Positions 7,547 to 61,786 of a DNA stretch of 64,000 bases are shown piece after piece; position 1 is the first letter of the stretch; each line of letters opens with the position of its first letter. A program made the position numbers and the translations under genes. The notes under the pieces are model-generated. The model made no database searches and had not been told where the DNA came from. It worked only from the letters and a program-made list of their open reading frames with translations. Origin of the DNA: a bacterium (GTDB lineage Bacteria > Hydrothermota > UBA3073 > JACQXS01 > JAGMCI01); NCBI GenBank assembly GCA_030018315.1, contig JASEGA010000006.1:1271-65270 (forward strand). The letters are read 5' to 3'.

Positions 7547-7731
7547 ATCTCTACCCCTTCTTTATGTGCGAAAAATGAAATACAACCAATACTGTTTTTA
7601 TTAAGGAAATCCCAATCACTGCCTTGGTTGTAATCGCCTCTTGCCATACTGCCGAAAAGAATGATTTTTACTATTTCTAAGCCGTTTGTTTCTATCACTT
7701 TCCTAATTACTTTTACAGCAGTTTCTAACAT
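7543..7731 (-). CDS. minimal nucleotidyltransferase (short, possibly degraded MntA)
   Basis: ILFGSMARGDYNQGSDWDFL; only 62 aa; 4-bp overlap with the HEPN gene. Confidence 0.55.
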   Translation of the reverse strand: MLETAVKVIRKVIETNGLEIVKIILFGSMARGDYNQGSDWDFLNKNSIGCISFFAHKEGVEI

Positions 7732-11563: not shown

Positions 11564-11575
11564 AATCCCTCCTTA

Positions 11576-11607
11576 AACTTTTAGACTTTTAGACTATTAG
11601 ACTTTTA
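11576..11607 (-). promoter_or_regulatory. TTTTAGACT motif site F2, upstream of nitroreductase 10976-11563
   Basis: aacttttagacttttagactattagacttttaa. Confidence 0.5.
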
Positions 11608-11609
11608 AT

Positions 11610-12029: not shown

Positions 12030-12086
12030 GTAGGGGTTTGATTTATCAAACCCAAACTTATTGGGCACGATAAATCGTACCCCTAC
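12030..12086. repeat. large imperfect inverted repeat (GTAGGGGTTTGATTTATC ... GATAAATCGTACCCCTAC)
   Basis: Arms of 18 nt with 2 mismatches. The core resembles the GGGGTTTGATTAATCAAACCCC palindrome found in the T9SS CTD copies. Confidence 0.5.
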
Positions 12087-14555: not shown

Positions 14556-14577
14556 TTAAACCTCCTCACCACTTTAT

Positions 14578-14608
14578 GACTTTTAGTCTATTACACTTTT
14601 AGATTTCC
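14578..14608 (-). promoter_or_regulatory. TTTTAGACT motif site F3, upstream of alanine dehydrogenase
   Basis: gacttttagtctattacacttttagatttcc. Confidence 0.5.
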
Positions 14609-14647
14609 TTATTAAAAATCAAACCTGACACCAAAGATTCTCATTAA

Positions 14648-22946: not shown

Positions 22947-22952
22947 CTCCAT

Positions 22953-22980
22953 ACTTTTAGACTCTTAGACTCTTATTCTA
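22953..22980 (-). promoter_or_regulatory. TTTTAGACT motif site F5, upstream of the four-helix-bundle gene
   Basis: acttttagactcttagactcttattcta. Confidence 0.5.
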
Positions 22981-23467
22981 TTATTACTAATGTATCGCCC
23001 CCATTTACCGTCATCCCCTGTTTGACAAGTACCTGCTTAACAAGCCCATCTCTTGGTGCCTTCATCTCATTTTGCATCTTCATCGCCTCAACTATCAAAA
23101 GACCACTACCCGCTTTTACTGTATCACCTGGCTTTACCCCTACTTCTATAACTAACCCTGGCATGGGAGCAGTGACCTTAACTTCACCAACATGAGTAAT
23201 CTCAGGCTTGAGTTTAGTGAGTGCTTGTACTTGCTCATCCTCAACACTTACCTTGAATCTCTCACCATCTACCGAAATAGTATTCTCATCCTCAATAATA
23301 ACATCATACGACTTGTTATCAACTATCAGTGATAAATGTGAATTACTGCCAACCTCCACAACAGTAGCTTTCATAGGCTTGTTATCTATATAAACTTTGA
23401 ATCCATTACCTTCTTTTTCTAACTCAACTTTGAACTCCTTATCATCAACTTTAGCAATATATGCCAT
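22973..23467 (-). CDS. biotin carboxyl carrier / biotinyl-domain subunit
   Basis: C-terminal EAMKM biotinylation motif (VEAMKMQNEM) plus a ~90-aa N-terminal extension. Confidence 0.85.
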   Translation of the reverse strand: MAYIAKVDDKEFKVELEKEGNGFKVYIDNKPMKATVVEVGSNSHLSLIVDNKSYDVIIEDENTISVDGERFKVSVEDEQVQALTKLKPEITHVGEVKVTAPMPGLVIEVGVKPGDTVKAGSGLLIVEAMKMQNEMKAPRDGLVKQVLVKQGMTVNGGDTLVIIE

Positions 23468-23480
23468 TTATACTGTCTTA

Positions 23481-23511
23481 CTTTTAGACTATTAGACTTT
23501 TAGTCTATTAT
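23481..23511 (-). promoter_or_regulatory. TTTTAGACT motif site F6, upstream of the biotin carrier gene
   Basis: acttttagactattagacttttagtctatta. Confidence 0.5.
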
Positions 23512-25010
23512 CACATCTTTCTCAATTCTGCCTGCCTCGCTGCAAACTTCCATGCACTGTAACGGGATTCGGATACTTTTGGGATAACTGAAACTTTCTT
23601 CTCTTTTAATGTCATCGCAATGGTTGCCCCTATAGCGGCAATGGGCTGGTTTGTCTTCTTTAATTCTGTGCTACCAAGCATCTTATCTACAAATGTTGTA
23701 TTATACTCACCACTTATAAAATATTGATTATTCATTACAAGCTGATGAAATGGTATACTTGTCTTAATCCCTATTATCTTATATTCAGAGAGTGCTCTCC
23801 TCATCCTTGATATAGATTCATCTCTCGTAGGTGCCCATACAAGTAACTTTGCAATCAACGGGTCATAAAACATAGGAACTTCAAATCCAGCAAATACTCC
23901 ACTATCTACTCTAACACCAGGTCCATTAGGCTCTATTAACTCAACTATTTTACCAGTTGATGGCATAAAGTTATTATCCGGGTCCTCAGCAGTTATCCTG
24001 CACTCTATAGCTGCACCTGATAATTTTACATCCTCTTGCTTAATTGATAGACGCTCACCTGCTGCTATCTTAAGCTGCTCCTTTACAATATCTATTCCGG
24101 TGACAAGCTCAGTTACAGGATGCTCAACCTGTAGCCTTGTATTCATCTCAAGGAAGTAGAAGTTCCTGTCTTTGTCTACCATAAACTCAACTGTCCCCGC
24201 ATTTGTATAACCTGACGCCTTAACTGCCTTGACTGCAGCAGCACCCATCTTAGCTCTAAGCTCTTTAGTCATCAAAGGTGAAGGCGACTCCTCTACTAAC
24301 TTCTGATACCTACGCTGAATAGAACACTCACGCTCACATAGATGGACTGCATTCCCATAGTTATCGGCAAGTATTTGAAACTCTATATGACGAGGAGAGT
24401 CAAGATACTTCTCAATATATATTGTTGGATTACCAAATGCAGACTTGGCTTCTGACATCGCTTGCTTCATAGCTGGCTTAAGCTCAGACTCAGACTTCAC
24501 TACCCTCATCCCTTTGCCACCACCACCAGCAGCCGCTTTTATAAGAACAGGAAAACCTACTTCATTCACAACCTTAATGGCTTCAGCTTCACTTGTAAGC
24601 CCTTTACTGGAACCGGGAGTCACAGGCACTTTAGCTTTAGTTATCGTCTTCCTTGCTTCAATTTTATCACCAAGTAGCCTTATAGCTTTGGAGTTGGGAC
24701 CAATGAATATTATATTATGAGACTCACAAGCCTCTGCAAAATATTCGTTTTCAGCTAGAAAACCATAACCTGGATGAATAGCGTCAGCATCCGTCTTCTT
24801 AGCTACTTCTATAATCTTGTCTATCTTAAGGTAGCTCTCAGCTGCAGGTGCCGGCCCTATCTCATATGCCTCATCTGCATACCTTGTATGCAATGCACTC
24901 CTGTCAGCTTCTGAATAAACTGTAGCTGTAAGTATACCAAGCTCCTTACACGCCCTAAGTACCCTTATTGCAATCTCACCACGATTCGCTACTAAAACCT
25001 TCCTAATCAT
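23511..25010 (-). CDS. biotin carboxylase subunit (acetyl/propionyl-CoA carboxylase or pyruvate carboxylase A-type)
   Basis: 499 aa; MIRKVLVANRGEIAIRV..., an ATP-grasp fold, GGGGKGMR. Confidence 0.92.
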   Translation of the reverse strand: MIRKVLVANRGEIAIRVLRACKELGILTATVYSEADRSALHTRYADEAYEIGPAPAAESYLKIDKIIEVAKKTDADAIHPGYGFLAENEYFAEACESHNIIFIGPNSKAIRLLGDKIEARKTITKAKVPVTPGSSKGLTSEAEAIKVVNEVGFPVLIKAAAGGGGKGMRVVKSESELKPAMKQAMSEAKSAFGNPTIYIEKYLDSPRHIEFQILADNYGNAVHLCERECSIQRRYQKLVEESPSPLMTKELRAKMGAAAVKAVKASGYTNAGTVEFMVDKDRNFYFLEMNTRLQVEHPVTELVTGIDIVKEQLKIAAGERLSIKQEDVKLSGAAIECRITAEDPDNNFMPSTGKIVELIEPNGPGVRVDSGVFAGFEVPMFYDPLIAKLLVWAPTRDESISRMRRALSEYKIIGIKTSIPFHQLVMNNQYFISGEYNTTFVDKMLGSTELKKTNQPIAAIGATIAMTLKEKKVSVIPKVSESRYSAWKFAARQAELRKM

Positions 25011-25388: not shown

Positions 25389-25670
25389 TTGAAGAAAGCA
25401 AATCCCAAATCCAAAATATCCGCAGGATCCTGTGGATTGGAGGCATATCCTAATCCATTTAGGGATAAAACAGTGATTAGGGTTCAGGGATTAGGTAGGG
25501 GTTTGATTAATCAAACCCCTACACTACAAATTTATGATTTAGCTGGCAGAATAGTTAAGTCGTTCCCACTAATCACTAGCCACTTATCACTATCCACTGC
25601 TGTTTACTGGGACGGAAGTGATAACGATGGCAAGAAGCTCGGTACCGGAAAAATGCTAATTTTGAGATAG
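25389..25670 (+). pseudogene. orphan T9SS C-terminal sorting-domain fragment, a duplicate of the CTD of 27570-28121
   Basis: AYPNPFRDKTVIRVQGLGRGLINQTPTLQIYDLAGRIVKSFPLI... is ~85-90% identical at the nucleotide level to the reverse complement of 27640-27850. It has no cargo domain and starts at a TTG. Confidence 0.45.
25496..25521. repeat. perfect 26-bp palindrome TAGGGGTTTGATTAATCAAACCCCTA inside T9SS CTD coding sequence
   Basis: Self-complementary; a second exact copy lies at 27764-27789. It encodes GLINQTP. Confidence 0.8.
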
Positions 25671-25768: not shown

Positions 25769-27319
25769 TCATAACGGTATATTACCGTGCTTTCTTGCCG
25801 GATTTGTATCACGCTTGTTATCAGTTAACTCAAGTGCCTCAATTAGACGTGGCCTTGTATCCCTTGGCCTTATGACTTCGTCTATGTAGCCCTTACTCGC
25901 AGTTATGTATGGGTTAGCAAACTTCTCAGTATAATCAGATACAAGTTTACTCTCTAATGCTTTTGGGTCTTTAGCTTCTTTCAGCTCTTTTCTATAAAGT
26001 ATCTTAACTGCACCCTCGGGTCCCATAACTGCTATCTCACCAGTTGGCCATGCAAAGTTGACATCTGCCCTTGTATGCTTTGAACTCATAACACAGTATG
26101 CACCACCATAAGCTTTACGCGTTATCACAGTCATCCTTGGTACAGTTGCTTCACAGAATGCATAAAGGAGCTTAGCACCATTCTTTATTACACCACCCCA
26201 CTCCTGAGCAGTTCCTGGAAGGAAACCTGGCACATCTACAAATGTAACAATTGGTATATTAAAGCAGTCACAAAATCTGACAAACCTTGCCCCTTTTATT
26301 GCCGAATTTATATCAAGCACACCTGCAAGTACTGATGGCTGGTTTGCTACTATTCCTACAGACCTACCACCAAGTCTTGCAAACCCAATAATAATATTTT
26401 TAGCAAAGTGCGGTTGGACTTCAAAGAAGTCACCATCATCTACTACCTTTCTTATTATCTCGCTCATATCATAAGGCTTTATAGGACTATCTGGTACAAT
26501 ATTATCAAGTGCATCATCTATACGGTTCGGATCATCTCTACACTCAACTAAAGGTGGGTCTTCAAGATTATTTTGTGGTATATAGCTGAACAGCTTTTTA
26601 ATTAACTCTATACACTCCACTTCACTCTCTGCTGCAAAGTGCGCAACACCAGATTTCTCATTGTGGACCATAGCACCACCAAGCTCCTGAAATGTCACAT
26701 CCTCATGTGTAGCTGCCTTCACAACATCAGGGCCTGTCAAAAACATATAAGAAGTCTCCTTTACCATAAATACAAAGTCAGTTATAGCAGGTGAATAAAC
26801 TGCACCACCCGCACACGGTCCCATAATAGCAGAAATCTGTGGCACTACACCTGATGCAAGCACATTGCGTAAGAATACATCTGTGTAGCCTGCAAGACTA
26901 TCTACACCTTCCTGAATACGAGCACCACCTGAATCCTTTATCCCAATAATTGGACAGCCATTTTTCATCGCCATATCCTGTAGCTTACATATCTTTTCAG
27001 CATAAGCCTTAGAAAGTGAGCCACCAAATACAGTGAAGTCTTCCGAGAATATATACACTAACCTACCATTTATTTTGCCATAGCCAGTAACAACACCATC
27101 CCCGGGTATCTTTTTCTTGTCCATATCAAAGTCAGTACAGCGATGAGTGACAAACATATCAGTTTCTCTAAAACTGCCTTTATCAAGCAATAGGTCTATC
27201 CGCTCCCTTGCAGTAAGTTTACCAGCGGAATGTTGTTTATCTATTCTCTCTTTGCCACCACCAAGTAGAGCCTGCTTCTTAAACTCATCAAGCTCTTTAA
27301 GTTTATCATTTTCTTTCAT
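25769..27319 (-). CDS. acyl-CoA carboxyltransferase (propionyl-CoA carboxylase beta / methylmalonyl-CoA decarboxylase alpha type)
   Basis: 516 aa; the carboxyltransferase N- and C-domains are intact (GGARIQEG...; ...GGAYCVM...). Confidence 0.9.
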
Positions 27320-27569: not shown

Positions 27570-28121
27570 TTATCTCACAACAATTATTTTCTTTGTTATA
27601 CTTTTATTACCAGTAGTAAGCTTGCAAAAGTATACACCTGAGTCAACAAATTTTCCAGCTTCATCCTTACCATCCCAAGAAACAGCAGTGATTAGTAAGA
27701 AGTGATCAGTGATAAGTGGAAAAGACTTAACTAATCTACCAGCCAGATCATAGATTTGTAGTGTAGGGGTTTGATTAATCAAACCCCTACCTAATCCCTG
27801 AATCCTAATCACTGTTTTCCCACTGAATGGATTAGGATATACTTCTAACAATTCGTCATTCGTCATTCGGATTTCGGATTTTACCGTCTCTTCTACTCCA
27901 TAAGCATCAACCTTTATAAGATATACATCAGACTCTCCTGCCCCATATGACCAAGTAGATCCAGCTATAATATAGCCACCGTCTCTCGTCTGTGCCACTG
28001 AGTAACCGAAGTCCCAATGAGTTCCGCCATATGTCTTTTCCCAGCCAGCAGATACTACATTAGCCAAACCTGGTAACCCCAATATAGTCACTATTACAGC
28101 CTTAGCAATCAACCTTAACAT
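27570..28121 (-). CDS. small secreted repeat protein with a T9SS C-terminal sorting domain
   Basis: Signal peptide; YGGT.WDFGYSVAQTRDGGYIIAG repeat; C-terminal CTD VYPNPFSGKTVIRIQGLGRG... Confidence 0.7.
   Translation of the reverse strand: MLRLIAKAVIVTILGLPGLANVVSAGWEKTYGGTHWDFGYSVAQTRDGGYIIAGSTWSYGAGESDVYLIKVDAYGVEETVKSEIRMTNDELLEVYPNPFSGKTVIRIQGLGRGLINQTPTLQIYDLAGRLVKSFPLITDHFLLITAVSWDGKDEAGKFVDSGVYFCKLTTGNKSITKKIIVVR
27764..27789. repeat. second copy of the 26-bp perfect palindrome TAGGGGTTTGATTAATCAAACCCCTA
   Basis: Exact match to 25496-25521. Confidence 0.8.
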
Positions 28122-28170
28122 ACTGCACCCCTTCTCATTGATTTAGACTGAAAAATGAACTCTGTCTACC

Positions 28171-29022
28171 TCAATGAATAGGATTCAATTTAAGCTTGCC
28201 TTCATCTTCACTTAAATACCCCATCCCAATTTTTGGGTCATGCTCAAATATAAGTAGCCAGTGTTCTTTAACTGCTATATTTAATAACTCTCTCTTCTTT
28301 TTCATTGTCTCTAATGGATACAAGTCATAACCCATCACATAGGGTAGTTTGATATGTGATGTTGTTGGAATCAAGTCAGCAAGATATAAAGCTTTTCCAC
28401 AGGATCCTTCGGAATTACCATGTGACTCAATTAACACAACTTGATGTCCTGCTGTATGCCCACCAGTCACAATAGTTTTAACACCCGGCACAATTTCTGT
28501 ATCCCCATCTATTAGATTAAGTAAACCAGCCTCTTCAATAGGGACCAAATTCTCTTTTAAATAGCTGGCACGAGTACGCTCATTTGGGTTGATGGCAGCA
28601 TCCCACTCACCACGTTGTATTACATATTTAGCATTCGGAAATGATGGAACAAGCTTGCCATTTTCAATCCTTGTGTTACCGCCACAGTGGTCAAAGTGGA
28701 GGTGTGTATTTATAACAACACCTATAGAGTCGTGGCTAAGTCCAAGCTTTTGTAAAGAGTCATTTAAATTACAAGTCTTATCTACCCTATACATACCCTT
28801 AAATTTTTCATCCATTTTTTCGCCAATCCCTGTATCTACAAGTATATTTTTATCACCTACTTGTATCAATAAGCAATTAAGACCAAGCTCAATCCTGTTT
28901 TCACTATCTGCAGGATTAAGTCTGTTCCAGATGACCTTAGGCACTATACCAAACATAGCACCACCATCAAGCCAAAACTTGCCATCTGAAAGGAGTTCTA
29001 AATTAGACTCGCCAAATCTCAT
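28171..29022 (-). CDS. MBL-fold metallo-hydrolase, with an in-frame short family-A insert
   Basis: [10 protein letters not shown] (HxHxDH) motif. The likely start is ATG 29020-29022, in an ATGA overlap with the upstream B12 subunit stop. [13 protein letters not shown] contains the family-A short form. Confidence 0.8.
28396..28414. repeat. family-A element, short form (tccacaggatccttcggaa), in frame inside the MBL hydrolase
   Basis: Same 19-mer core as 11869-11889. Confidence 0.75.
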
Positions 29023-29414
29023 TTCTTTACCACCCCCTTTATCCACTTCACTATTTCAGTAGTTGGAGTCCCGGGTCCAAATAGCTTTTTAACGCCTTGT
29101 TTCTCAAGTGCCTCCATATCTTCTTTTGGAATTATGCCACCACCACAAACAACTATATCAGCTGCACCTTTAGACTTAAGTAGTTTAACAATCTTTGGGA
29201 ATATAGTCATATGGGCACCGGATAGGATTGATACCCCTATCACATCTACATCCTCCTGAATCGCAGCCTCTACAATTTGCTCAGGTGTCTGGTGCAGTCC
29301 AGTATATATGACCTCCATCCCCGCATCTCTTAAGGCAGCAGCTACTACTTTTGCCCCCCTATCGTGACCGTCAAGCCCCGGCTTCGCTACTAATACTCTT
29401 ATCTTCTTTGCCAT
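29019..29414 (-). CDS. methylmalonyl-CoA mutase small subunit (cobalamin-binding domain)
   Basis: 131 aa; [19 protein letters not shown]... carries the DxHxxG B12-binding motif. Confidence 0.9.
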
Positions 29415-33407: not shown

Positions 33408-34781
33408 ATGGCAGTCCGTATTTTAGTTGTAGACGATGAACCTAATATCAGAAAATCTATAAAAGGATTACTTGAAGATAAAGGCTACGAACTCGAGACA
33501 GTTGCTACTGGTGAGGATGCACTTTTTTGTATAGAGAAAAACAACTTTGATATCGTCTTACTTGATATTGTCTTACCCGGAATTGATGGGATTCAGGTAC
33601 TTGAAAAGATTAAACAAAACAAACCTTATCTTCCTGTAGTTATGATTTCAGGTCAGGCTACAATTGATAATGCAGTAAAAGCGACTAAACTTGGTGCTTA
33701 CGATTTCTTAGAGAAACCAATAATAGGCGAAAAACTGCTACTCCTCATAACACATCTTCTTGAGCATGAAGGGCTTAAAAGACAGGTTGCCAAGCGATAC
33801 ACAATGGTTGGGTCAAGCAATGCCATAAAAAAACTTTACGAAGAGCTTAAAAGAGCTGCCCAATCCAATAGCCGTGTCCTTATTCATGGTGAGAGTGGCA
33901 CAGGCAAAGAACTTGTAGCTCGTGCTATACATGACTACAGTCCTCGAAAAACACAGCCTTTCATAACAGTAAATTGTGCTGCTCTCCCTAAAGAACTTAT
34001 AGAAAGCGAGCTTTTTGGCTACGAGAAGGGTGCATTTACAGGCGCTATTACAAAGAAAGAGGGTAAATTCATTTTAGCAAATACTGGCACTCTATTTTTG
34101 GATGAGGTAGGTGATATGAGTCTTGAGACACAAGCTAAGTTGTTGCGAGTGCTGGAAGAGGGTGAAATAGAGCCATTGGGTGGCAAAACGCCGATAAAAG
34201 TGGATGTAAGAGTTATCTCTGCTACTAACAAGAATCTGGAGTATGAGACTCAAAAAGGAAATTTCAGACAAGATCTACTCTTCAGAATAAATGTAATCCC
34301 TATTTTTGTGCCTCCGCTACGGGAGCGAATTGAGGATATAGGGATTCTATCTAAATATTTTATTAAGTTATTTTGTGAAGAAAACGGTAAACGGTCAAAA
34401 GATATAGAGTCAAGTGCTATAAAAGAACTTGAAAAATATAACTGGCCAGGTAATGTAAGGGAGTTAAAGAATCTTATGGAGCGTCTTGTAATTATGGTAC
34501 CCAGAGATACGATTACTGTAAACGATGTAGTCTCACTATCCCGACCTGTCGGGATAGGAAGCAAGGAAATGATTGTAGGGCAAGGCTTTAGCCTTGCAAA
34601 AAATGAAGAGTTGTCACTTCGGCAGAGAGTAGATAACTTTGAGCGCACACTTATCCAGCAAGCACTTATAGCAGCTGACTGGAATATTAAGAAGGCAGCA
34701 GCCATACTTAAAACTGACCGTGCTAACCTTTATCGTAAGATTAGAGAGTATGGTCTAACTGATTGTAGGGGTAATTCATGA
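33408..34781 (+). CDS. sigma54-dependent response regulator (NtrC family: REC - AAA+ - Fis HTH)
   Basis: ILVVDDE...D receiver; GESGTGKE Walker A; GAFTGA sigma54-contact motif; ELKNLMER; C-terminal HTH. Confidence 0.9.
   Translation: MAVRILVVDDEPNIRKSIKGLLEDKGYELETVATGEDALFCIEKNNFDIVLLDIVLPGIDGIQVLEKIKQNKPYLPVVMISGQATIDNAVKATKLGAYDFLEKPIIGEKLLLLITHLLEHEGLKRQVAKRYTMVGSSNAIKKLYEELKRAAQSNSRVLIHGESGTGKELVARAIHDYSPRKTQPFITVNCAALPKELIESELFGYEKGAFTGAITKKEGKFILANTGTLFLDEVGDMSLETQAKLLRVLEEGEIEPLGGKTPIKVDVRVISATNKNLEYETQKGNFRQDLLFRINVIPIFVPPLRERIEDIGILSKYFIKLFCEENGKRSKDIESSAIKELEKYNWPGNVRELKNLMERLVIMVPRDTITVNDVVSLSRPVGIGSKEMIVGQGFSLAKNEELSLRQRVDNFERTLIQQALIAADWNIKKAAAILKTDRANLYRKIREYGLTDCRGNS
34576..34598. 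repeat. family-D palindromic 23-mer (TAGGGCAAGGCTTTAGCCTTGCA), in frame within the NtrC linker
   Basis: An exact 23-nt match lies at 44431-44453 (intergenic). It encodes VGQGFSLA between the AAA+ and HTH domains. Confidence 0.75.
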
Positions 34782-35095
34782 ATTACCCCTATAACATTAG
34801 TGTCAGACTACAACACCTTTGTGTCAAATTGCTACACAAATAAAAGTTTTAGATACTCTTAAATATTTTACATAAAACACTAAAAACCCATCCCCACAAT
34901 AATTCAGGGAAATAGCTACCAAATTATTGCCCAAATGTCACAGAAGTTGCTATGTTAAGAAAGAGGGTGATTGTAATGAAGAAGAAGTTAGAAGTAGCGG
35001 CAGTTGGGATTGGAGGGTTAGTTCTTTATACCCTCGCTATGGGGATAATGCTTTTTATTAACGCACTAATATTGGTGCGTTAAAGGAGGTGAACT

Positions 35096-52867: not shown

Positions 52868-53836
52868 GTGCTTTTTTTATTAGTATTTTTTACTTTTACA
52901 GTTCAAGGCGATACCTCCCCTAAGCGGTTCCTTTATGGAGTAAATGTAGAACATGGTGAGAACTTGACACAGGTAGCAGAAAAACTTTATGCCCAAGGTA
53001 TAATAGAACACAAATTTTGGTTTAAGGTGTGGGCTAAAGTTACAAACCAAGACCGTAATATTAAGGCTGGTTACTACATTTTTAAAAAGCCTACCCCAAT
53101 TCGTGAAGCGTTAAGAACACTTGTTGAGGGCAGGAATGCAGGTATAAGAGTTACAATCCCTGAAGGTGCAACACTTCGTGAAATTGCGTGGCTATTCAGG
53201 AGATATGGGGGAGTCAATAAAGAAGAGTTTATTAGGCTTGCACATGACACTTCTTATATAAGAAGCTTTGGTATACAAGCGAGCTCCCTTGAGGGCTACC
53301 TTTTTCCGAAGACTTATTTTATTCCATATGGAACGAATCCAAGAGAAGTGATACCATTTATGATTGAGCAGTTTTTTCAAGTCTTTGGTGAAGATTTTTA
53401 CAATAGGTCAAAAGAAATAGGGTTTACACTTGAGGAGGTAGTAACTTTTGCCTCCCTTATTGAGAAAGAGGCTGTATGTGATTCTGAGAAGCCTATAATA
53501 TCAGGAGTCTACCATAAGCGGCTTAAGCATAAATGGCCACTCCAGTGTGATGCTACTATTCAATACATTTTACCTGAACGAAAGCCGCGTCTTACTTACT
53601 CTGACCTTTCCATCCATTCCTTATATAACACTTATATTTATCAAGGTTTACCTCCCGGTCCTATATGTTCACCTGGGGAGAGTTCTATCAGAGCTGCATT
53701 ATGGCCGGATGAGACTGATTATTTATACTTTGTTGCACGTGGTGATGGCACACATATATTTTCGAAAACCTTGAAAGAGCATCAAATTGCAAAAGAGAAA
53801 GTTAGAGAGAAACAAGAAATGACGAAATCCAAATGA
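52868..53836 (+). CDS. mltG: endolytic murein transglycosylase MltG (YceG family)
   Basis: N-terminal TM; YceG-like domain (…GYLFPKTY…; …YFVARGDGTHIFS…). Confidence 0.85.
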   Translation: MLFLLVFFTFTVQGDTSPKRFLYGVNVEHGENLTQVAEKLYAQGIIEHKFWFKVWAKVTNQDRNIKAGYYIFKKPTPIREALRTLVEGRNAGIRVTIPEGATLREIAWLFRRYGGVNKEEFIRLAHDTSYIRSFGIQASSLEGYLFPKTYFIPYGTNPREVIPFMIEQFFQVFGEDFYNRSKEIGFTLEEVVTFASLIEKEAVCDSEKPIISGVYHKRLKHKWPLQCDATIQYILPERKPRLTYSDLSIHSLYNTYIYQGLPPGPICSPGESSIRAALWPDETDYLYFVARGDGTHIFSKTLKEHQIAKEKVREKQEMTKSK

Positions 53837-53839
53837 CGA

Positions 53840-56176
53840 ATGACGAAAAATGACAGTCTCAAAGAGCGAGATTGCTTCGCTATCGCTCGCAATGACATTT
53901 ACGGAGTGAAGCATCTAATGTGTAGAACTTTAAGCTGGCTTGTAATTTTTACTTTCTATTTCATACTTCCCACTTTCATTTATGCTGAAATAATTGTAGA
54001 GCTTAAAGTAGAGGGGATAGAAAATGTAGCCCCTGGTCTTGTAATTTCAACATCAGGTTTAGAAATAGGGGATGAGTTAACTGTGGAGAGTGTAAGGAAT
54101 GCTGTCAAGCAAATTTATAGGACACAGTTGTTTAAAGATGTTGAGATACAGTACGAAAAAGAGGGTGGTGGGGTAAAGCTTACTATATTGGTCAAGGAAT
54201 ACCCACGTATATCTAAGATTGGGTTCAAATGGAATAAAAAATTTAAGGATAAGAAGCTACTTGAACTATGTGGCTTAAAAGAGGGTGACATTGGAGTTGA
54301 GACATCAATTTTTAATGGAGCAGTAAAGATACGCAAGGCTTATAAGAAGGATGGTTATTATTTGGCAGAAGTTAAACCTGTTACAGAAGAGGTCAATAAA
54401 GAGCTCAAGGTGGAATACCTAATTACAGAGGGTAAGCGTGTTAAGATTCGCTCAATTGAAATTATTGGTAATCGTGCTTTTAAAGATGACGAACTTGAAA
54501 AGAGGCTAAAAAATAGAGAAAAGAGATGGTACAGGTCAGGTAATTTTAGTGGAGAAGAATTTGAAAATGACCCAGATAAGATTGTTGAGTTTTATCGGAA
54601 TCATGGGTATCCGAACTGTAAAGTTGTGGATGTGAATATAGTGCCTGATGAAAATAAAGAATGGGTTAGAATATACATTAAGATTGATGAAGGTAGTAAG
54701 CTATTTTTGGGTAATGTAGGTTTTGATGGTAATAAAGTTATAGATACAAGAGATTTAATTAAAGAAGTGAAGTTTAAAAGGCTCTCCCTTTATTCAAGTA
54801 ATGCCTTATCAAAGACATTAGAAGGTATCTATAGTCTTTATGGGAATCGTGGCTACATATATGCAATCGTTGACCCTGTAGAAGAGTTAAGTGACAGTGT
54901 TGTAGATATAACTTATAAAATCAAAGAAGGCAAACCGGCAAGGATACATAAGATTATAATTGAAAATAATACAAAAACACACGAAAAAGTTATACGACGC
55001 GAACTCACAATATTTCCCGGTGATATACTGTCTCGTAAAGAATTAATAAATTCACAGCGTAAGGTGTTTAATTTAGGGTTCTTCAAGAACATAACCCTTG
55101 ATACAAAGCCTGCCTCGCCAAGTCAAGGTGGGCAAGCCAATGAGCAAGGGGATATAGACCTTATAATTAAAGTAGAAGAGAAACCAGCAGGCCAAGCCTC
55201 TCTTGGTGCCAGTTATTATCCGAAGCATGGCCTTGTGGGTAATCTTGGTTTATCTACTCCTAATTTTAGAGGTATGGGTGAGCTATTATACATCAACTTA
55301 CAGAAAGGTGAAAAGTTACAGACTCTTGAAGCAGGTTACAACAGGCCATGGCTATTTGATACACCTATGAGTGTAGGGTTAGACGCATTTCATACTTTTG
55401 AGAAGCGCCCGTTATATAAAACACAGAGAACAGGTGGCAATGTTAAGGTTGGTAGGCCTATACCAAGACTTACATTCACAAAAGGGTACATTTCGTATAA
55501 ACTTGAGCGTGTGAAAGCATCAGCTGATGATACTGCTTCGTTAAGTTCTTATATAAAAGAGAGCCTTGGCGACCGTATTAGGAGTGTAGCTACATTTGAA
55601 GTTGTAAGAGACTCGCGTGATAATTTCCTTAATCCGACAACAGGGACACGTAATGATGCAGAAATTGAACTCTCAGGCGGTCCTTTAGGTGGTAGTGTAG
55701 ATTACCATAAGGAGATATTTGAAACTTCTACTTATCACAAACTTTTTTGGCGTTTTGTGCTTGGCTTAAGGGGTAAGTTTGGCGCTATAGATGGATACAG
55801 AACACCGGCTGATGTCCCTTTATATGAGCGGTTTATACTTGGTGGTATAGGAGAATGGGGGCTAAGAGGGTACAGGGACTGGTCAATAGGACCTGAAAGG
55901 GATGGTGAAGTAATAGGTGGCAGATTTGCATCCTTGTTCACAATTGAGACTAAAATTTCTTTTGAAGAAAATCTTTATCCACTTGTATTTTTAGATGCCG
56001 GTAATACATGGGAATGTTTCAAAGAGGCTAATTTTCAGGACCTAAAGCGGGGGGTGGGGGTTGGGTTTAGGATAGAGATACCAATGATGGGACTGGTAGG
56101 GTTTGATTTTGGCTATGGTATAGATAAGAAACCAAGAGGATGGGAGTTCCATTTGCAGATGGGGAAGCTGTTTTAA
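53840..56176 (+). CDS. bamA: outer membrane protein assembly factor BamA
   Basis: 778 aa; five POTRA-like segments followed by an Omp85 beta-barrel; C-terminal GWEFHLQMGKLF. Confidence 0.9.
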   Translation: MTKNDSLKERDCFAIARNDIYGVKHLMCRTLSWLVIFTFYFILPTFIYAEIIVELKVEGIENVAPGLVISTSGLEIGDELTVESVRNAVKQIYRTQLFKDVEIQYEKEGGGVKLTILVKEYPRISKIGFKWNKKFKDKKLLELCGLKEGDIGVETSIFNGAVKIRKAYKKDGYYLAEVKPVTEEVNKELKVEYLITEGKRVKIRSIEIIGNRAFKDDELEKRLKNREKRWYRSGNFSGEEFENDPDKIVEFYRNHGYPNCKVVDVNIVPDENKEWVRIYIKIDEGSKLFLGNVGFDGNKVIDTRDLIKEVKFKRLSLYSSNALSKTLEGIYSLYGNRGYIYAIVDPVEELSDSVVDITYKIKEGKPARIHKIIIENNTKTHEKVIRRELTIFPGDILSRKELINSQRKVFNLGFFKNITLDTKPASPSQGGQANEQGDIDLIIKVEEKPAGQASLGASYYPKHGLVGNLGLSTPNFRGMGELLYINLQKGEKLQTLEAGYNRPWLFDTPMSVGLDAFHTFEKRPLYKTQRTGGNVKVGRPIPRLTFTKGYISYKLERVKASADDTASLSSYIKESLGDRIRSVATFEVVRDSRDNFLNPTTGTRNDAEIELSGGPLGGSVDYHKEIFETSTYHKLFWRFVLGLRGKFGAIDGYRTPADVPLYERFILGGIGEWGLRGYRDWSIGPERDGEVIGGRFASLFTIETKISFEENLYPLVFLDAGNTWECFKEANFQDLKRGVGVGFRIEIPMMGLVGFDFGYGIDKKPRGWEFHLQMGKLF

Positions 56177-56184
56177 AAACATTG

Positions 56185-57264
56185 ATGAATACAGATAATC
56201 CTAAACTAAATTTTTTCATTTTTCATTTTTTATTTTTCATTTTGTTATCCGGTTGTGGCAAGAAGGAGCCGATTGGGTATGAGATTGTGAAACCGAGGGA
56301 GGGTGAAATTAGACAAGCGCGGGGTTTCGTGGTTAGGTGGAATAATTATTCAGAGTTTGCATCTATGAGTAGAGCTACAGAGTTATTTGCGGGAGAGGAG
56401 TGTGACTTTAAGGCGATGGCTTTCATTTGCTTTGAATTTGATACTACTCTTTTACCTGATTCACTTTGGCTACTTGGAGTGAATTCTGGTAAAGTGAAAG
56501 TTTGTAAAGTCACAGGATTATGGAACCCGGACTCTATAAATTGGAGTCATATTCCGGATACAGGTGAGATATTTGATACTGTTGAAATTAAAGAAGGTGA
56601 TACCTGTTTGGTTTACATACAGGATTCAGTACCGGATTCAGTATTCTCTATTGGCTTCTTACCATATATTGGGATGGCAAGCTTTAAACCACTACGACTG
56701 TCAGTAAAGGAGGATACAAATTTCTATTCTCCAAGTAAGAAAGTGTACATTGATACAAGTTATTTTACACAAGATTTGCCAATGATTGAGACAGGTGCTT
56801 ATACTACACAATGTACACTTTGGTTTAGTTTGGAGATACCAGTGTTTCTCAAGGAGACCACTTATATTCCAATTGACTCTTTTTTAGGTGATACTGTGTT
56901 TCCATGCACTTTGGTTGTAGGTGATTCTTTTATTACTGATACTTCTGTGATTAATTACATCCTTAACTTTAAATCTGCTACCGTAAATGATGCGTCATTT
57001 TATATTCCTATAGATACAACTAATTCTTACAAATGGGATATAGGGATTTATGCTGGCTGTAGAGGTGTGTATTCATCAAGTTCTCACCCAAAAGGTGACA
57101 CACTTAGTTTATCAATTGAGAGAATAGTAGATAGGTGGTTTAAAGAAGGCGACTGCTGGCTTGTTTTGAAAGGTGATGCACAGAAGATTGGACGTGTTGT
57201 GTTTGATATAGAGGGTGCTCAGCTTTCTATAACTTATATACTACCACCTAAAAGAAGGGAATGA
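56185..57264 (+). CDS. hypothetical lipoprotein
   Basis: MNTDNPKLNFFIFHFLFFILLSGCGKK (lipobox LSGC). The start at 56185 is preferred over the track start at 56140, which overlaps bamA. Confidence 0.5.
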   Translation: MNTDNPKLNFFIFHFLFFILLSGCGKKEPIGYEIVKPREGEIRQARGFVVRWNNYSEFASMSRATELFAGEECDFKAMAFICFEFDTTLLPDSLWLLGVNSGKVKVCKVTGLWNPDSINWSHIPDTGEIFDTVEIKEGDTCLVYIQDSVPDSVFSIGFLPYIGMASFKPLRLSVKEDTNFYSPSKKVYIDTSYFTQDLPMIETGAYTTQCTLWFSLEIPVFLKETTYIPIDSFLGDTVFPCTLVVGDSFITDTSVINYILNFKSATVNDASFYIPIDTTNSYKWDIGIYAGCRGVYSSSSHPKGDTLSLSIERIVDRWFKEGDCWLVLKGDAQKIGRVVFDIEGAQLSITYILPPKRRE

Positions 57265-58355
57265 ATAAACTTAAAATGCAAAACTCAAACCTACAGCTCA
57301 AAATGCAAAATTATAAACCACAAGATTTACACGAGATTAACACCAGATTGATTTTTTCTCTTGTGAAAATTTGTGTAATCTGTGGTTTCTTATTGCTTGG
57401 TTCGGCTTATTGTTATTCACTCTTCTCTGGCGGTGGATTAGGTGAGCCAGTAGAGGTGCAGAATGCGGCTTACATTGGGATGGGAGGGATACAAAAGTTT
57501 AAACTGCCGAGTCAATTAACATTTGAGTTCTCTATGGTATTGGAAATTGTAGATGAGGATGGTAAGGCTACGAACTTTGATTTCACACTCCCATATGTGA
57601 GATATGTGCTACCCTTGCCTAAAGAGGTAGCACCTCAAGGTATGGGAATAGACATTGGTCTAAATGAAGTATTAAATTTAAATTTTGACATCCATAGTCC
57701 ATGGGAAGAGTTGTATGGTGACTCAGTTCAACGCCGTGTTAAAAGTAGAGGCAGTGCAAGTATAGGGAAGATAGGAATTGGCAAGAACTTCAGCTCTATC
57801 GCAGTTGAACTTGGTGGCTTTGTAGTTTTTGGGTCAGCTCAAGAGGAGTGGGTTACAGACTTTAAGACTATGCATGATGCATATGATACGCTGAGATTAA
57901 AATTTTTTGGTCCCGGGTATTTGGCATCTATAGGATTGGATTTTTGGAAATTTGGCTTAAGTGCAAGCTATCTATCACATGCTAAACTTACTTCTAATAC
58001 CAACCTTCCGTCAAGAGTTGTTGCATCGATAAGTTATACTCCTATTGAAAAAGCTACAGTCGAAATAGGGGTTACAAGTTGGCAGTGGAGTAGTCCATTT
58101 AAGCCAATGAATAGAGTATCAGTGGGGGGTAAGTATGAAATTAGTCCATTGATATTACGGTGTGGTTTTTACACTAACAACTGGTATTATGGAGATATAA
58201 AAGAACGGGTTGGTGCATTAGGCTTGGGTATTCCACTTAAATCACTTTGTACGATTGATTTGAGCTTTGAGTTTGGTAAAAGGTGGAACCCTATCCTTGA
58301 AGAGAGGATTTACAGGGCTTGTATAACCTTACAGGGAAAAGAATCATTGATGTAG
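57261..58355 (+). CDS. hypothetical outer-membrane beta-barrel-like protein; the C-terminal SLM* is supplied by the E-family repeat
   Basis: Signal/TM N-terminus and alternating beta patterns; ATGA overlap with the upstream gene. Confidence 0.4.
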   Translation: MNKLKMQNSNLQLKMQNYKPQDLHEINTRLIFSLVKICVICGFLLLGSAYCYSLFSGGGLGEPVEVQNAAYIGMGGIQKFKLPSQLTFEFSMVLEIVDEDGKATNFDFTLPYVRYVLPLPKEVAPQGMGIDIGLNEVLNLNFDIHSPWEELYGDSVQRRVKSRGSASIGKIGIGKNFSSIAVELGGFVVFGSAQEEWVTDFKTMHDAYDTLRLKFFGPGYLASIGLDFWKFGLSASYLSHAKLTSNTNLPSRVVASISYTPIEKATVEIGVTSWQWSSPFKPMNRVSVGGKYEISPLILRCGFYTNNWYYGDIKERVGALGLGIPLKSLCTIDLSFEFGKRWNPILEERIYRACITLQGKESLM

Positions 58356-58393
58356 ACAGAAATGTATGGGCGGGGTAACCCCGCCCCTACGAA
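58344..58393 (+). repeat. E-family REP-like element (TCATTGATGTAGACAGAAATGTA-GGGCGGGGTAACCCCGCCC-CTAC), copy 1
   Basis: GC hairpin GGGCGGGG-TAA-CCCCGCCC followed by a T6 run. Its first 12 nt encode S-L-M-stop of the preceding gene. A partial copy lies at 58436-58447. Confidence 0.8.
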
Positions 58394-58422
58394 GTGATTT
58401 TTTACCTTGACTTGGTAAATAA

Positions 58423-58877
58423 GTTGAGTATAATTTTATCATTGATGTAGCGCCCGATTTATCGGATTCAGTCTACCTCAATGATAAAGGGATAAAAGTA
58501 GCAGTTATAGAAAAACCTATAAAGCTCAGTGGTTCTGTAGGAGAGGAGGATGTTGTAGCAATCTTTGACTCTGGCTCCACATATTCTTGCATTAAGTTAG
58601 AATTGGCAAAGAGACTTGGGATAGTAGAACCTCTTCCTAAGCCTAAGGAGTTGGGCACAGATGGAAAAGGGAGAAAAGTAACCACAAAGAAGGCGGTAAG
58701 ACTTGATTTCGATCTCAACGGGTACACATTCAGTGATGAGTTTATGATTGTTCCAAAGCTTTCCGACCCTGTAATCATCTCGGAGCTAAGACACTGCAGG
58801 CGTGGAGAATGAAGCTCAATTTTGAGACAGAGGAGGTAATTATTGACCCAAGGGTGACAAAACTTAGGCTTTTGTAA
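58423..58877 (+). CDS. retropepsin-like (clan AA) aspartyl protease domain protein, frameshifted and without a canonical start
   Basis: …VAIFDSGSTYSCIKLELAKRLG… (D-S/T-G-S motif). The C-terminus ALQAWRMKLNFETEEVIIDP continues in another frame after ~58775. The track lists only 58603-58812. Confidence 0.45.
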
Positions 58878-58901
58878 ATGGGATAAGTTAGGGAGGATAA
58901 G

Positions 58902-59870
58902 ATGAAGAAGTATATTTTGGCTTTTATACTTTTGCTGTTAACTATTTTTGCACTTGCCTCGCCGAGTCAAGGCGGGGAGGCTAAAATTGGATACATTGAC
59001 TCTAAGCGTATTTTTGACGAATACAAAGGTAAGGATGAGCTTGCCCAAAAGATGCAAAAAGAACTTGATAGCTGGCAAAATGAAGCGATAAAGAGAAAGC
59101 AGGAAGTCCAAAACCTTATAAAGGAGTTTGATTCTCAGTTTCTTATGTTATCAGAAGAAGCAAGGGAGAGGAAGCGTAGAGTTATAGAACAAAAGCAAAG
59201 AGAGTATGAAGATTTTGTTCAAAGGATATGGGGACCTGATGGTGAGGCTCAAAAGCAGAACGAAAAGATTATGAAGCCATTTATTGACAAGGTGAACTCA
59301 ATATTACGAAAGATAGGTGAGGATGGTGATTATGCGATAATATTTGATGTTGCAAGTACTGGTGTTGTGTATGCAAAAGAAGGTATGGATTTATCGTCTC
59401 AGGTGATTGCTGAATTGAACCAAGAATATGCACCTACTGTGGCAGCAAAAGAGAAGGCTAATTTTTGCGTATTTAAGTTTAAAGAGCTAACAGCTGAAGC
59501 CAGAGATTATGGACACGGAACACAAGTGGCTCAGGTCTTGAAGGCAGGTTTAATTAAGACTGGTAAGTTTGAGGAGTCTAAGAAGCTACCCGATGCTTTG
59601 CGTGAAGCAAACATAGGTAAAAAGGAGGAAGATTTTACGCAGGAGGAGGCGGCAAGGGTTGGTAAATTAGCTATGGCAAAATTGGTAGTAATTGGTGAAG
59701 TGACGAGAGTAGGTGATAAAGTTGATATTACCTGTAAAGTTGTAAACCCAAACACAAGTGAAATAATAGCGCAAGAAATTGGGAGTAGTGTGAGTGGTGA
59801 GAGGGAAGATATTATAAATATGGTAGGTGAAGTACTGTCTAAGTTAGTTCCCAAAATATCATTGATGTAG
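58902..59870 (+). CDS. OmpH/Skp-like periplasmic chaperone with a ~150-aa C-terminal extension
   Basis: The N-terminal 170 aa are coiled-coil Skp-like (KIGYIDSKRIFDEYKG…). It lies between bamA and lpxD as in the canonical cluster. The extra C-terminal domain is of unknown function. Confidence 0.7.
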   Translation: MKKYILAFILLLLTIFALASPSQGGEAKIGYIDSKRIFDEYKGKDELAQKMQKELDSWQNEAIKRKQEVQNLIKEFDSQFLMLSEEARERKRRVIEQKQREYEDFVQRIWGPDGEAQKQNEKIMKPFIDKVNSILRKIGEDGDYAIIFDVASTGVVYAKEGMDLSSQVIAELNQEYAPTVAAKEKANFCVFKFKELTAEARDYGHGTQVAQVLKAGLIKTGKFEESKKLPDALREANIGKKEEDFTQEEAARVGKLAMAKLVVIGEVTRVGDKVDITCKVVNPNTSEIIAQEIGSSVSGEREDIINMVGEVLSKLVPKISLM

Positions 59871-59909
59871 ACAGAAATGTAGGGGCGGGGTAACCCCGCC
59901 CCTACAATG
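59859..59909 (+). repeat. E-family REP-like element, copy 2
   Basis: TCATTGATGTAGACAGAAATGTAGGGGCGGGGTAACCCCGCCCCTACAATG. It overlaps the skp-like stop (…ISLM*) and ends 2 nt before the lpxD ATG. Confidence 0.8.
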
Positions 59910-59911
59910 CT

Positions 59912-60910
59912 ATGAAATTAGCAGAGATTGCAAAACTTGTTACCGGTAAATTAAATGGTGACCCAGAGCTTGAAGTTAGTAGAATTGCAAGAATTGAGGA
60001 AGCTGAATCTGGTGATATAACTTGGTTCTCACATCCAAGGTATCGCAAATGGCTTAATAAAACACATGCCTCTTGTATAATTGTACCTAAAGGGATGAGT
60101 GGGGCATCAATTTCTACAATAGAACTAGAGAATCCATCTCTTGCAATTGCTAAGCTTTTACAAGAATTTTATCCTAAACCTATTCCACAAAAAGGTATAA
60201 GTAAACTTGTCCAAATTGATGCAACTGCTAAAATTGGTAAAGGAGTGAGTATAGGGGCATTTGTTTATATAGGTAAAGACTCTGTTGTTGGCAATAGGGT
60301 TACTATTTTCCCGCATGTATATATTGGTGACAATGTCGCAATTGGGGATGATACCCATATCTATCCAAATGTGACAATTGAGGACAATGTAGTTATTGGG
60401 AACAGGGTAATAATTTATTCAGGTGCTGTAATTGGGAGCGACGGTTTTGCTTATACGCGAGTGAAAGGGAAGCATGAGCGAATTCCTCATTGTGGTGGTG
60501 TTATCTTAGAGGATGATGTTGAGATAGGTGCATTATCAACTGTGGACAGGGCTGTTATTGGAAATACAATAATCAAAAAAGGGACAAAAATTGATAATTT
60601 AGTCCATATCGCACATAATGTTGTGATTGGTGAGCACTCTATAATTGTAGCACAAGTTGGGATTGCAGGTAGTACTCGGATTGGTAAAAATGTGACAATT
60701 GCGGGGCAGGCTGGTCTTACTGACCATTTAATAATTGGCGATAATGTAGTTATAGGAGCACAGGCAGGGGTGACAAAAGATGTCAGAAATGGGATGACTG
60801 TATCCGGCTATCCTGCCAGACCACATTTAGCGTCAAAAAAAGCGTACGGGTTATTGATAAAGCTACCGGAGTTATTTAAAAGAGTTAGAAGACTTGAACG
60901 AGGTCATTGA
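59912..60910 (+). CDS. lpxD: UDP-3-O-acylglucosamine N-acyltransferase
   Basis: N-terminal LpxD domain plus a left-handed beta-helix of hexapeptide repeats. Confidence 0.92.
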   Translation: MKLAEIAKLVTGKLNGDPELEVSRIARIEEAESGDITWFSHPRYRKWLNKTHASCIIVPKGMSGASISTIELENPSLAIAKLLQEFYPKPIPQKGISKLVQIDATAKIGKGVSIGAFVYIGKDSVVGNRVTIFPHVYIGDNVAIGDDTHIYPNVTIEDNVVIGNRVIIYSGAVIGSDGFAYTRVKGKHERIPHCGGVILEDDVEIGALSTVDRAVIGNTIIKKGTKIDNLVHIAHNVVIGEHSIIVAQVGIAGSTRIGKNVTIAGQAGLTDHLIIGDNVVIGAQAGVTKDVRNGMTVSGYPARPHLASKKAYGLLIKLPELFKRVRRLERGH

Positions 60911-60955
60911 TGTAAACAGAAATGTAGGGGCGGGGTTACCCTTGTCCCTACAATG
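60904..60955 (+). repeat. E-family REP-like element, copy 3 (diverged hairpin)
   Basis: TCATTGATGTAAACAGAAATGTAGGGGCGGGGTTACCCTTGTCCCTACAATG. It supplies the lpxD stop (GH*) and overlaps the lpxC start. Confidence 0.75.
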
Positions 60956-61786
60956 ATTATAATGCAGGCTACGATAAAAGAAACATTTTCAATAAAGGGG
61001 ATTGGGGTTCATACAGGTACTTATGCTAAAGTAACTATAAAACCGGCTCCTGTTGGAAATGGTATAACTTTTAATCACTCTAATGTGATTATACCGGCAA
61101 TAGTTGATAGAGTCAACAACACTGGGCATGGGGTGAGTTTAAAATTTGGGAGTTATGAGATAAGGACATGTGAGCATTTGTTATCTGCACTTTATGGGTC
61201 AGGTATAGACAATGCGATATGCGAGCTTGATGAGGTAGAACTGCCTGCACTTGATGGTAGTAGCTTAGAATTTGCGAAGCTTATAAGAGAAAAAGGAATA
61301 AAAAGCCAAAATGTGGAAGAGAAAAAGATCGAAATAAAGGAGCCTATATTACTAACTAAGGGAGACGCAGGTATATTTGCGATACCATACAAAGGATTTA
61401 GAGTCTCATTTATAATAGATTATCCGTATCAAGGGATTAGGACTCAGTATTGTAGTTTTGATATAACACCAGAAGTTTATTTTAATGAGATTGCACCTGC
61501 GCGTACTTATACATTTATGGGCTGGATAGGAGAGTTAAGAGAGAAAGGGCTTATTAAGGGCGGTAGTCTTGAGAATGCAATAGTGATTGATGAAAATGGG
61601 CCACTTAATCCGTTGAGGTTTAGTGACGAACCAGTTCGTCATAAGATACTTGACCTAATTGGGGACCTTGCCTTACTTGGTGCAAGACTAAAAGGCTGGG
61701 TTTTTGGGATAAAGTCAGGTCATGCTCTAAATATTGAACTTGTCCGCAGGATTCTGCGAATTAGGAGGCTCAAATATGGAATTTGA
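60953..61786 (+). CDS. lpxC: UDP-3-O-acyl-N-acetylglucosamine deacetylase
   Basis: GIGVHTG…, EHLLSAL, HAL motifs. Confidence 0.92.
   Translation: MIIMQATIKETFSIKGIGVHTGTYAKVTIKPAPVGNGITFNHSNVIIPAIVDRVNNTGHGVSLKFGSYEIRTCEHLLSALYGSGIDNAICELDEVELPALDGSSLEFAKLIREKGIKSQNVEEKKIEIKEPILLTKGDAGIFAIPYKGFRVSFIIDYPYQGIRTQYCSFDITPEVYFNEIAPARTYTFMGWIGELREKGLIKGGSLENAIVIDENGPLNPLRFSDEPVRHKILDLIGDLALLGARLKGWVFGIKSGHALNIELVRRILRIRRLKYGI

Follow-up and report, generated by a model that had tools for sequence, protein, structure and literature searches.

A composite repeat of 49–57 nt occurs three times on the + strand (from positions 58344, 59859 and 60904), at successive gene junctions of an outer-membrane/lipopolysaccharide (LPS) operon, in the 64,000-nucleotide stretch analysed here (contig JASEGA010000006.1 of the bacterial assembly GCA_030018315.1, forward-strand positions 1,271 to 65,270; hereafter the window). 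On balance, we regard this repeat as a composite, non-autonomous element of the repetitive extragenic palindromic (REP) class, tagged with the tetranucleotide GTAG, probably mobilised by a REP-associated tyrosine transposase (RAYT) and tolerated at gene junctions, a reading that we hold with some confidence rather than with certainty. An earlier sequence-only reading of this DNA had called the repeat REP-like, and the label suits a GC-rich perfect palindrome headed by GTAG. Moreover, the repeat displays traits of the REP class: a GC stem of 12–13 bp, a 3-nt loop and GTAG at the end of the stem-loop, where the class has stem-loops of 20–40 bp with GC-rich stems of 6–13 bp and loops of 2–4 nt. 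REPs as a rule follow open reading frames (ORFs) where the neighbouring genes are unidirectional or convergent; the copies here lie less than 20 nt downstream of ORFs and between genes of the same strand, with the TAG of GTAG serving as stop codon.

Anatomy of the repeat and the gene ends within it

Each copy starts with a 20-nt 5' module, TCATTGATGTAGACAGAAAT, which contains an unpaired GTAG located 8 nt 5' of a 27-nt palindrome, GTAG-GGGCGGGG-TAA-CCCCGCCC-CTAC. The palindrome is tagged at both ends, by the GTAG head (GTAT in copy 1) and by its mirror CTAC. The right end of the composite is short, AATG(A), a mirror-image counterpart to TCATT(G) on the left; the one common to copies 2 and 3, CTACAATG(A), repeats the left TCATTG(ATG)TAG in mirror image and in shortened form, and the terminal symmetry extends over 5–9 nt. 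Copy 1 reads TCATTGATGTAGACAGAAATGTA-T-GGGCGGGGTAACCCCGCCCCTAC (58344–58390), and the replacement of T by G in copy 2 (59859–59905) creates a perfect 13-bp stem. In copy 3 the loop is TTA, and the 3' arm CCCTTGTCCC still pairs through G.U, so that the RNA stem is kept. The consensus proposed in the sequence-only reading described a real repeat, but its string omits one base (T/G) between GTA and GGGCGGGG.

The 5' modules of the three copies are identical at 22–23 of 23 positions. When up to 3 mismatches were allowed in the window, the 23-nt 5' module gave 3 matches against 0.00 expected from shuffled sequence, and the 19-nt hairpin core gave copies 1 and 2 only, each on both strands, again against 0.00 expected. 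All three copies (3/3) that had been reported after a hypothetical outer-membrane protein ('OMP') gene, the skp-like gene and lpxD are present, beyond chance. Neither the window nor the ~800 kb of fetched loci contained a further full-length match to an nhmmer profile built from the three copies. The sequences that flank one copy are unrelated to those that flank the others, which gives the element sharp boundaries and disfavours a segmental duplication. An assembly artefact was ruled out, since the ORFs are intact and the Logan assembly L107, made independently from SRR23186779, shows no difference along 15,099 nt that contain all copies.

The stops of the three preceding genes all fall within the first 12 nt of the element. 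In copy 1, the TAG at 58353–58355 closes the ORF 57261..58355; in copy 2, the TAG at 59868–59870 closes skp; and in copy 3, the TGA at 60908–60910 closes lpxD. As had been noticed from the sequence, these 12 nt supply the last codons together with the stop, and the resulting SLM, SLM and GH ends are seen in the ORFs. Each of the three frames runs into a stop within the element, the first at TAG, the second at TGA and the third at the TAA of the loop or the TGA of the right end; this is statistically unremarkable at ~50 nt of AT-rich sequence and is a property rather than evidence of design. On the other side, the right-end ATG of copy 2 opens a mini-ORF, ATGCTATGA (59907–59915, ATG-CTA-TGA), and the stop of this mini-ORF shares bases with the ATG at 59912 from which lpxD starts. 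The right-end ATG of copy 3, at 60953, is the first ATG in frame with lpxC and lies upstream of the native start at 60962. No Shine-Dalgarno sequence precedes lpxD or lpxC, while GGAGG is found before skp and fabZ.

Comparison with syntenic loci of relatives

We compared the locus with the syntenic loci of four relatives, L108, L110, L111 and L112, the nearest of which is only ~60% identical at the protein level (Skp homologues). Judging from these homologues, the window's genome is WOR-3/Stahlbacteria-like. The composite element is absent from all four syntenic relatives. Their lpxD and lpxC genes overlap by 16, 1, 16 and 16 nt, respectively; skp and lpxD overlap (ATGA) in L112 and are separated by a gap of 30–76 nt in the remaining three. 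In a DNA alignment with L108 and L112, a clean gap of ~57 nt faces copy 3, between CTTGAACG(A/C) and AATGCA(A/G)G.

The protein C-termini differ as well. In the relatives, the hypothetical protein ends in ...GKEIL or ...GKEAF (GKESLM in the window) and LpxD ends in ...LERKCKQR (LERGH in the window), while Skp orthologues end in ...PKITK, ...PKISK and similar, with an SLM end in 0/22 orthologues. The number of codons replaced is 1–2 in the hypothetical gene and in skp, and about 5–6 in lpxD. Because the relatives lack the composite, have overlapping lpxD and lpxC genes and have different native C-termini, the sequences indicate that the three copies are derived insertions of ~50–57 nt, found in this lineage only, and that the insertion of copy 3 split an ancestral lpxD–lpxC overlap. 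The earlier claim that insertion rewrote the C-termini agrees with these orthologue ends and with the lpxD–lpxC overlap in 4/4 relatives, it being understood that the rewriting is small.

The identities of the host genes were confirmed by Pfam for BamA, OmpH/Skp, LpxD, LpxC and FabZ, in agreement with the names first given to them. The 'OMP' label of the ORF 57261..58355 found no such support: neither Pfam nor NCBIfam gave a family match beyond a BamG match far below threshold, and an AlphaFold single-sequence model (mean confidence score, pLDDT, of 29) was uninformative, so that the gene stays a conserved hypothetical. The retropepsin-like pseudogene upstream of skp is absent from the relatives. 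The coordinates of these genes and of the repeats are collected in Table 1.

Table 1. Positions in the window of the repeat copies, the related inverted repeats and the neighbouring features
Feature	Position	Strand	Description
Copy 1	58344..58394	+	5' module 58344–58363; hairpin 58364–58390, with GTAT head and one mismatch
Copy 2	59859..59911	+	5' module 59859–59878; perfect palindrome GTAGGGGCGGGGTAACCCCGCCCCTAC at 59879–59905, then AATGCT
Copy 3	60904..60961	+	GTAA replaces GTAG in the 5' module; degenerate hairpin 60924–60951; right end CTACAATGATTATA
E1	28135..28177	-	Inverted repeat, minus strand TCATTGAGGTAGAC...GTCTAAATCAATGA
E2	58439..58484	.	46-nt inverted repeat TCATTGATGTAG ... CTACCTCAATGA, with inner CCGAT/ATCGG hairpin
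Sigma-70-like promoter	58407..58434	+	TTGACT-16-TATAAT, 11/12 consensus; between copy 1 and E2
Conserved hypothetical gene	57261..58355	+	Downstream of bamA; ends ...GKESLM-TAG
Retropepsin-like aspartyl-protease pseudogene (PF13650)	58486..58877	+	No start codon, one frameshift; between E2 and skp
skp	58902..59870	+	OmpH domain and CsgG/TolB-N-like C-terminal half; ends ...PKISLM-TAG
lpxD	59912..60910	+	C-terminus truncated and rewritten, ...LERGH-TGA
lpxC	60962..61786	+	Native start MQATIK at 60962 by homology

The palindrome in other genomes and in RAYT-like genes

When metagenomes were scanned for AAATGTADGGGCGGGGTWACCC, 46 loci of 35–65% GC in unrelated contexts were obtained, and in 12/38 occurrences the hairpin lies in frame inside a long ORF. 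The 5' module is absent from all 46 hairpin-bearing loci. An unrelated contig of 38% GC (L097) carries the 27-mer three times within 13 kb (6456–6482, 7580–7606 and 8874–8900); two of these copies are in frame in genes, a 397-aa ORF (no family search run) and the gene of a 465-aa protein, with the peptides VGAGLPRPY and CRGGVTPPL. At one hairpin locus, L066/L098, the identical 27-mer also lies in frame within a Y1_Tnp gene (L066 5686–6226). Moreover, in the RAYT-like genes of L114 (10001–10555) and L115 the 27-mer agrees exactly with that of copy 2, TAA loop included, and that of L116 contains a close variant.

The L066 gene was first flagged by phmmer with IS200 and RAYT queries, which served as a lead only, and was then checked with Pfam. 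Its Y1 protein has 2709 homologues at E ≤ 1e-10, many of them named RayT by the Joint Genome Institute (JGI). In most of the 29 homologues sampled, palindrome-like peptides are visible just behind the HUH motif MPNHIHGII, where the sequence is hypervariable, among them VGAG[LFS]PRP, CRGGVTPPL, CRGEVxSP and VGAIHELPL; the in-frame palindromes of the family are of the form GTAGGGG...CCCCTAC. Y1_Tnp was the sole Pfam match, near threshold, in all family members tested (5/5), and the family profile had a single significant match in the PDB, E. coli TnpArep (4ER8, E 1e-4).

From these observations, we tentatively hypothesize a very large, poorly described RAYT clade whose cognate REP is the 27-nt palindrome GTAGGGGCGGGGTWACCCCGCCCCTAC and in which each gene carries this palindrome in frame, directly after the HUH motif. 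Here it would be fused with a lineage-specific inverted-repeat module (arms TGA/TAG on the left, ATG on the right) into a 'junction-safe' mobile cassette able to enter overlapping essential genes such as lpxD–lpxC and to kill neither. We would sooner expect this wider proposal to fail than to hold. If true, it would explain an identical palindrome across phyla and in genomes of 35–65% GC, and the in-frame palindromes of the RAYT family, together with the cross-phylum 27-mer, would bear on the recognition between REPs and RAYTs and on their spread. No description of palindromes inside RAYT genes was found in the searchable literature.

As regards the composite element itself, a RAYT-type Y1/HUH transposase would spread it, with the hairpin as single-stranded substrate and guided by GTAG, in the way demonstrated biochemically for the REPs of E. 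coli, Stenotrophomonas and Marinomonas. Tolerance at junctions could follow from two properties: the element ends any incoming reading frame, and its right end offers an ATG beside the downstream start.

Several points weigh against a RAYT-mobilised REP-class element. Only three composite copies were found, all within 2.6 kb and none in the window's other 61 kb; REPs are defined by high copy number, with tens to hundreds of copies dispersed over the genome, and the 64 kb here gave three copies in one operon. The composite is likewise missing from the GTDB representative genomes, from the 46 metagenome loci that bear the hairpin and from IMG/VR, where the scans gave 0 matches for the palindrome and 0 for the composite. 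In the GTDB-representative scan (the source species is outside this collection), an 18-mer of the 5' module gave 60 single matches, 0 of them with the hairpin; these matches were rejected as chance, many of them falling in a conserved Bacteroidota coding motif. One 1.7-kb contig of the same metagenome-assembled genome (MAG), reached via a paralogue of a type IX secretion system (T9SS) protein, contains no elements. Furthermore, no RAYT or Y1 gene lies in the window or in ~70 kb of the loci of the WOR-3 relatives, and, with the nearest genome at ~60% protein identity, no close relative offers an empty site. The 5' module is without counterpart in described REPs; it resembles small inverted-repeat arms and could thus point to a different transposase, one that recognises terminal inverted repeats (TIRs). 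Finally, every effect at the RNA level is one that we infer.

GTAG palindromes of other families are present in the window and in relatives. A second family, GTAGGGGTTTGATTAATCAAACCCCTAC (12030–12057, 25495–25522 and 27763–27790), lies in the coding sequence of T9SS C-terminal sorting domains (CTDs) and encodes the peptide GLGRGLINQTPT, at a place where a paralogue of the same MAG has GLGISERQTIN. The palindrome GTAGGGGTAATTCATGAATTACCCCTA at 34765–34791 is similar to the one embedded in the RAYT genes of P0086/P0121, where it encodes VGAIHELPL. The skp–lpxD junction of L108 (8957–9012) holds a different hairpin, GTAG-N9-GTAGGGGCAGAC...GTCTGCCTAC...TCAATGA, in the same double-GTAG layout, its first TAG being the skp stop and its last ATG the lpxD start; a further hairpin lies within the L108 lpxD coding sequence (9181–9215).

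Separately, the window contains repeats of other kinds. A 197-nt inverted repeat, 83% complementary (25437–25633/27652–27848), consists of two T9SS-CTD-coding segments that flank a carboxyltransferase gene (25769..27319), the left segment being a CTD-only ORF of 93 aa. The sequence TTCGTCATTCGTCATTCGGATTTCGGATTTTACC at 27852–27891 has an inverse copy 26 kb away, at 53808–53847, which overlaps the listed start of the bamA ORF (53840). Runs of the octamer TTAGACTW (3–4 units, + strand) were found at 1262–1294, 11573–11620, 14567–14614, 22949–22993 and 23468–23523; at least those at 11573 and 14567 directly precede the Shine-Dalgarno sequence of minus-strand genes, and the runs may be a shared operator or a motif of 5' untranslated regions. 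Six tandem repeats of 147 nt (9662–10527, 64–82% identity) probably represent a repeated protein domain, and a 46-nt repeat with 96% identity (11521–11566/14249–14294) lies, on the minus strand, at the start of paralogous genes (MSEGFHTGRMTCGD...).

RNA structure, alternative readings and known systems

With their flanks, copies 1, 2 and 3 are predicted to fold with energies of -33, -34 and -26 kcal/mol (z-scores of -6.1, -7.3 and -3.2), respectively, and the stems begin 8–13 nt past the stop codons. If transcribed, stem-loops of this strength and position may act as a barrier to 3'-exonucleases. As spacers, they may also weaken or redirect the translational coupling into lpxD and lpxC, the two genes lacking a Shine-Dalgarno sequence. 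Liang, Rudd & Deutscher reportedly found in 2015 that REPs stabilise upstream mRNA and that those less than ~15 nt from the stop can impede terminating ribosomes. Such an RNA effect is probably a side-consequence and not the reason for the element's existence. In Rfam 15, no family reached its gathering score, the best being Termite-leu with 25 bits where 51 are needed.

The alternative that survives best, although we judge it unlikely, gives this RNA the leading role: the repeat would be a host-selected intercistronic regulatory hairpin, spread to nearby junctions by local duplication or gene conversion, which tunes the expression of the bamA unit, skp, lpxD and lpxC and is not mobile DNA. 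The confinement of all copies to 2.6 kb, in the sense of transcription and nowhere else in the 64 kb, is consistent with this, as are the near identity of the 5' modules (22–23/23) and the position of the stems, 8–13 nt past stops and directly before starts without Shine-Dalgarno sequences. So are the changes in the 3' arm of copy 3, which preserve G.U pairing in the RNA, and the different GTAG hairpin at the same skp–lpxD junction in L108. However, the 27-mer behaves like a selfish element, being met in dozens of contexts and phyla that are unrelated to one another, and also within coding sequences and RAYT-like genes. Moreover, three of the four relatives cope with overlapping or short junctions without a hairpin, and no homology between the flanks suggests a segmental duplication.

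A second alternative starts from the ends of the element. Two inverted repeats of 43–46 nt, E1 and E2, have arms of 12–14 nt made from the 5' module of the composite. E2 begins 5 nt past the -10 box of the skp promoter, and its left arm (58439–58450) corresponds to the partial fourth copy of the sequence-only reading, which was a real match wrongly placed at 58436–58447. The left arm of E1, TCATTGA, gives the TGA stop (...PIH*) to the upstream ORF 28171..29046(-), which is metallo-beta-lactamase-like (no family search run). Another gene begins 14 nt past E1. For the motif TCATTGAKGTAG, the window gives 9 matches where 0.5 would be expected, an enrichment. [quoted passage not shown] The inverted ends of E1 and E2 (28135–28177 and 58439–58484) carry this enriched end motif, the main copies end in CTACAATGA, a shortened mirror of the left end, and the L108 junction element ends in ...CTCAATGA. 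We nevertheless find a MITE improbable, given that the elements (43–57 nt) fall below the usual 70–300 nt and that the terminal symmetry of the main copies is just 5–9 nt, where TIRs of MITEs measure about 15–30 bp. A target-site duplication was undetectable at any copy, a matching transposase or a longer parent element is absent from the window, and GTAG lies inside the arms, as in REPs. Three further identities were rejected: CRISPR, for the spacing of 1.0–1.5 kb and copies that flank genes; integron attC, for the absence of R/L core sites; and IS200/IS605 ends, for the absence of tnpA/tnpB between copies.

The third alternative concerns transcription. The promoter downstream of copy 1, judged by its sequence, separates a bamA unit from a skp-lpxD-lpxC-fabZ unit, and a near-identical promoter lies upstream of skp in L108. 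Copy 1 thus likely sits at the end of a transcription unit, just upstream of a conserved promoter, and a T6 run (58398–58403) follows it. That the hairpins are primarily intrinsic terminators or attenuators causing polarity within the cluster, as had been proposed for copy 1, is nonetheless highly improbable in spite of this setting and of the strong stems (z-scores of -3.2 to -7.3): the terminator scan called no + strand intrinsic terminator at any of the three copies, none has a T-run within 0–2 nt of a GC stem, in copy 1 the T6 run starts 7 nt past the stem and is paired, in the predicted extended stem, with an upstream AAAAGAA, copies 2 and 3 have no T-run, and a terminator at either of these would shut off the essential genes lpxD, lpxC and fabZ, which have no promoter of their own above background.

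A GTAG-tagged REP-class element is thus the reading that we retain, and part of what it entails has precedents. The GTAG REP superfamily was defined by Di Nocera et al. 2013 (PMC3733652), who already described REPs that donate TAG stops, lie within ORFs or are fused to unrelated stem-loops, and whose survey lists 8 phyla with tagged REPs. Group 3 TnpA-REP was shown by Corneloup et al. 2021 (PMC8266576) to cleave perfect-palindrome REPs with GTAG as the guide, and repeats that extend the 3' ends of genes were reviewed by Delihas 2011 (PMC3184786). The donation of stops by REP elements is therefore already published, and less new than the sequence-only reading implied. In the literature searched, we found no mention of this palindrome and none of REPs in WOR-3.

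The present locus would extend GTAG-type REPs to an uncultured lineage (WOR-3/Stahlbacteria) of the Fibrobacteres–Chlorobi–Bacteroidetes (FCB) group. It would also provide a clean natural case of a REP insertion that splits the overlap of two essential LPS genes, lpxD and lpxC, and trims their products, with a bearing on how compact operons tolerate selfish DNA and on the rewiring of translational coupling. For annotation, the consequence of such elements in MAG proteomes is C-termini that are spurious or changed, together with inserted peptides (VGAGLPRPY, CRGGVTPPL, GRGLINQTPT).

Among known systems, the Correia/NEMIS and REP2 repeats of Neisseria are likewise small junction repeats that donate terminators, promoters and translational start sites; Correia elements differ in being MITEs of 100–150 bp with 26-bp TIRs and TA duplications, none of which is seen here. 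The Rickettsia palindromic elements (RPEs) and other small intragenic repeats (Ogata 2000; Delihas 2011, PMC3184786) are palindromic selfish DNA that enters or extends coding sequences non-destructively, and the 27-mer, which equals 9 codons, is similarly found in frame in many genes (VGAGLPRPY / CRGGVTPPL). RPEs, however, measure 100–150 bp and encode longer peptides, whereas in the window only the last 2–4 codons and the stop are element-derived. The REPs and bacterial interspersed mosaic elements (BIMEs) of E. coli, with their TnpA-REP (RAYT, 4ER8), share the hairpin with GTAG and the intercistronic location, and there the single-stranded DNA is recognised by a Y1/HUH enzyme; they differ in their imperfect palindromes with an essential bulge, in BIMEs reaching hundreds of copies and in having no TIR-like module.

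The closest likeness is to the GTAG REPs, such as the SMAG elements of Stenotrophomonas maltophilia and the perfect-palindrome REPs of 'group 3'. Unlike these, the present element is mirrored by CTAC and has an extra unpaired GTAG 8 nt upstream, in a conserved 20-nt module. It shares with them a short stem-loop that is GC-rich and perfect, headed by GTAG and closed by a loop of 3 nt, the position less than 20 nt from the 3' ends of ORFs between unidirectional genes, the use of TAG as stop, sister copies in frame in genes, the presence of several families per genome, and G.U pairs that suggest relevance at the RNA level.

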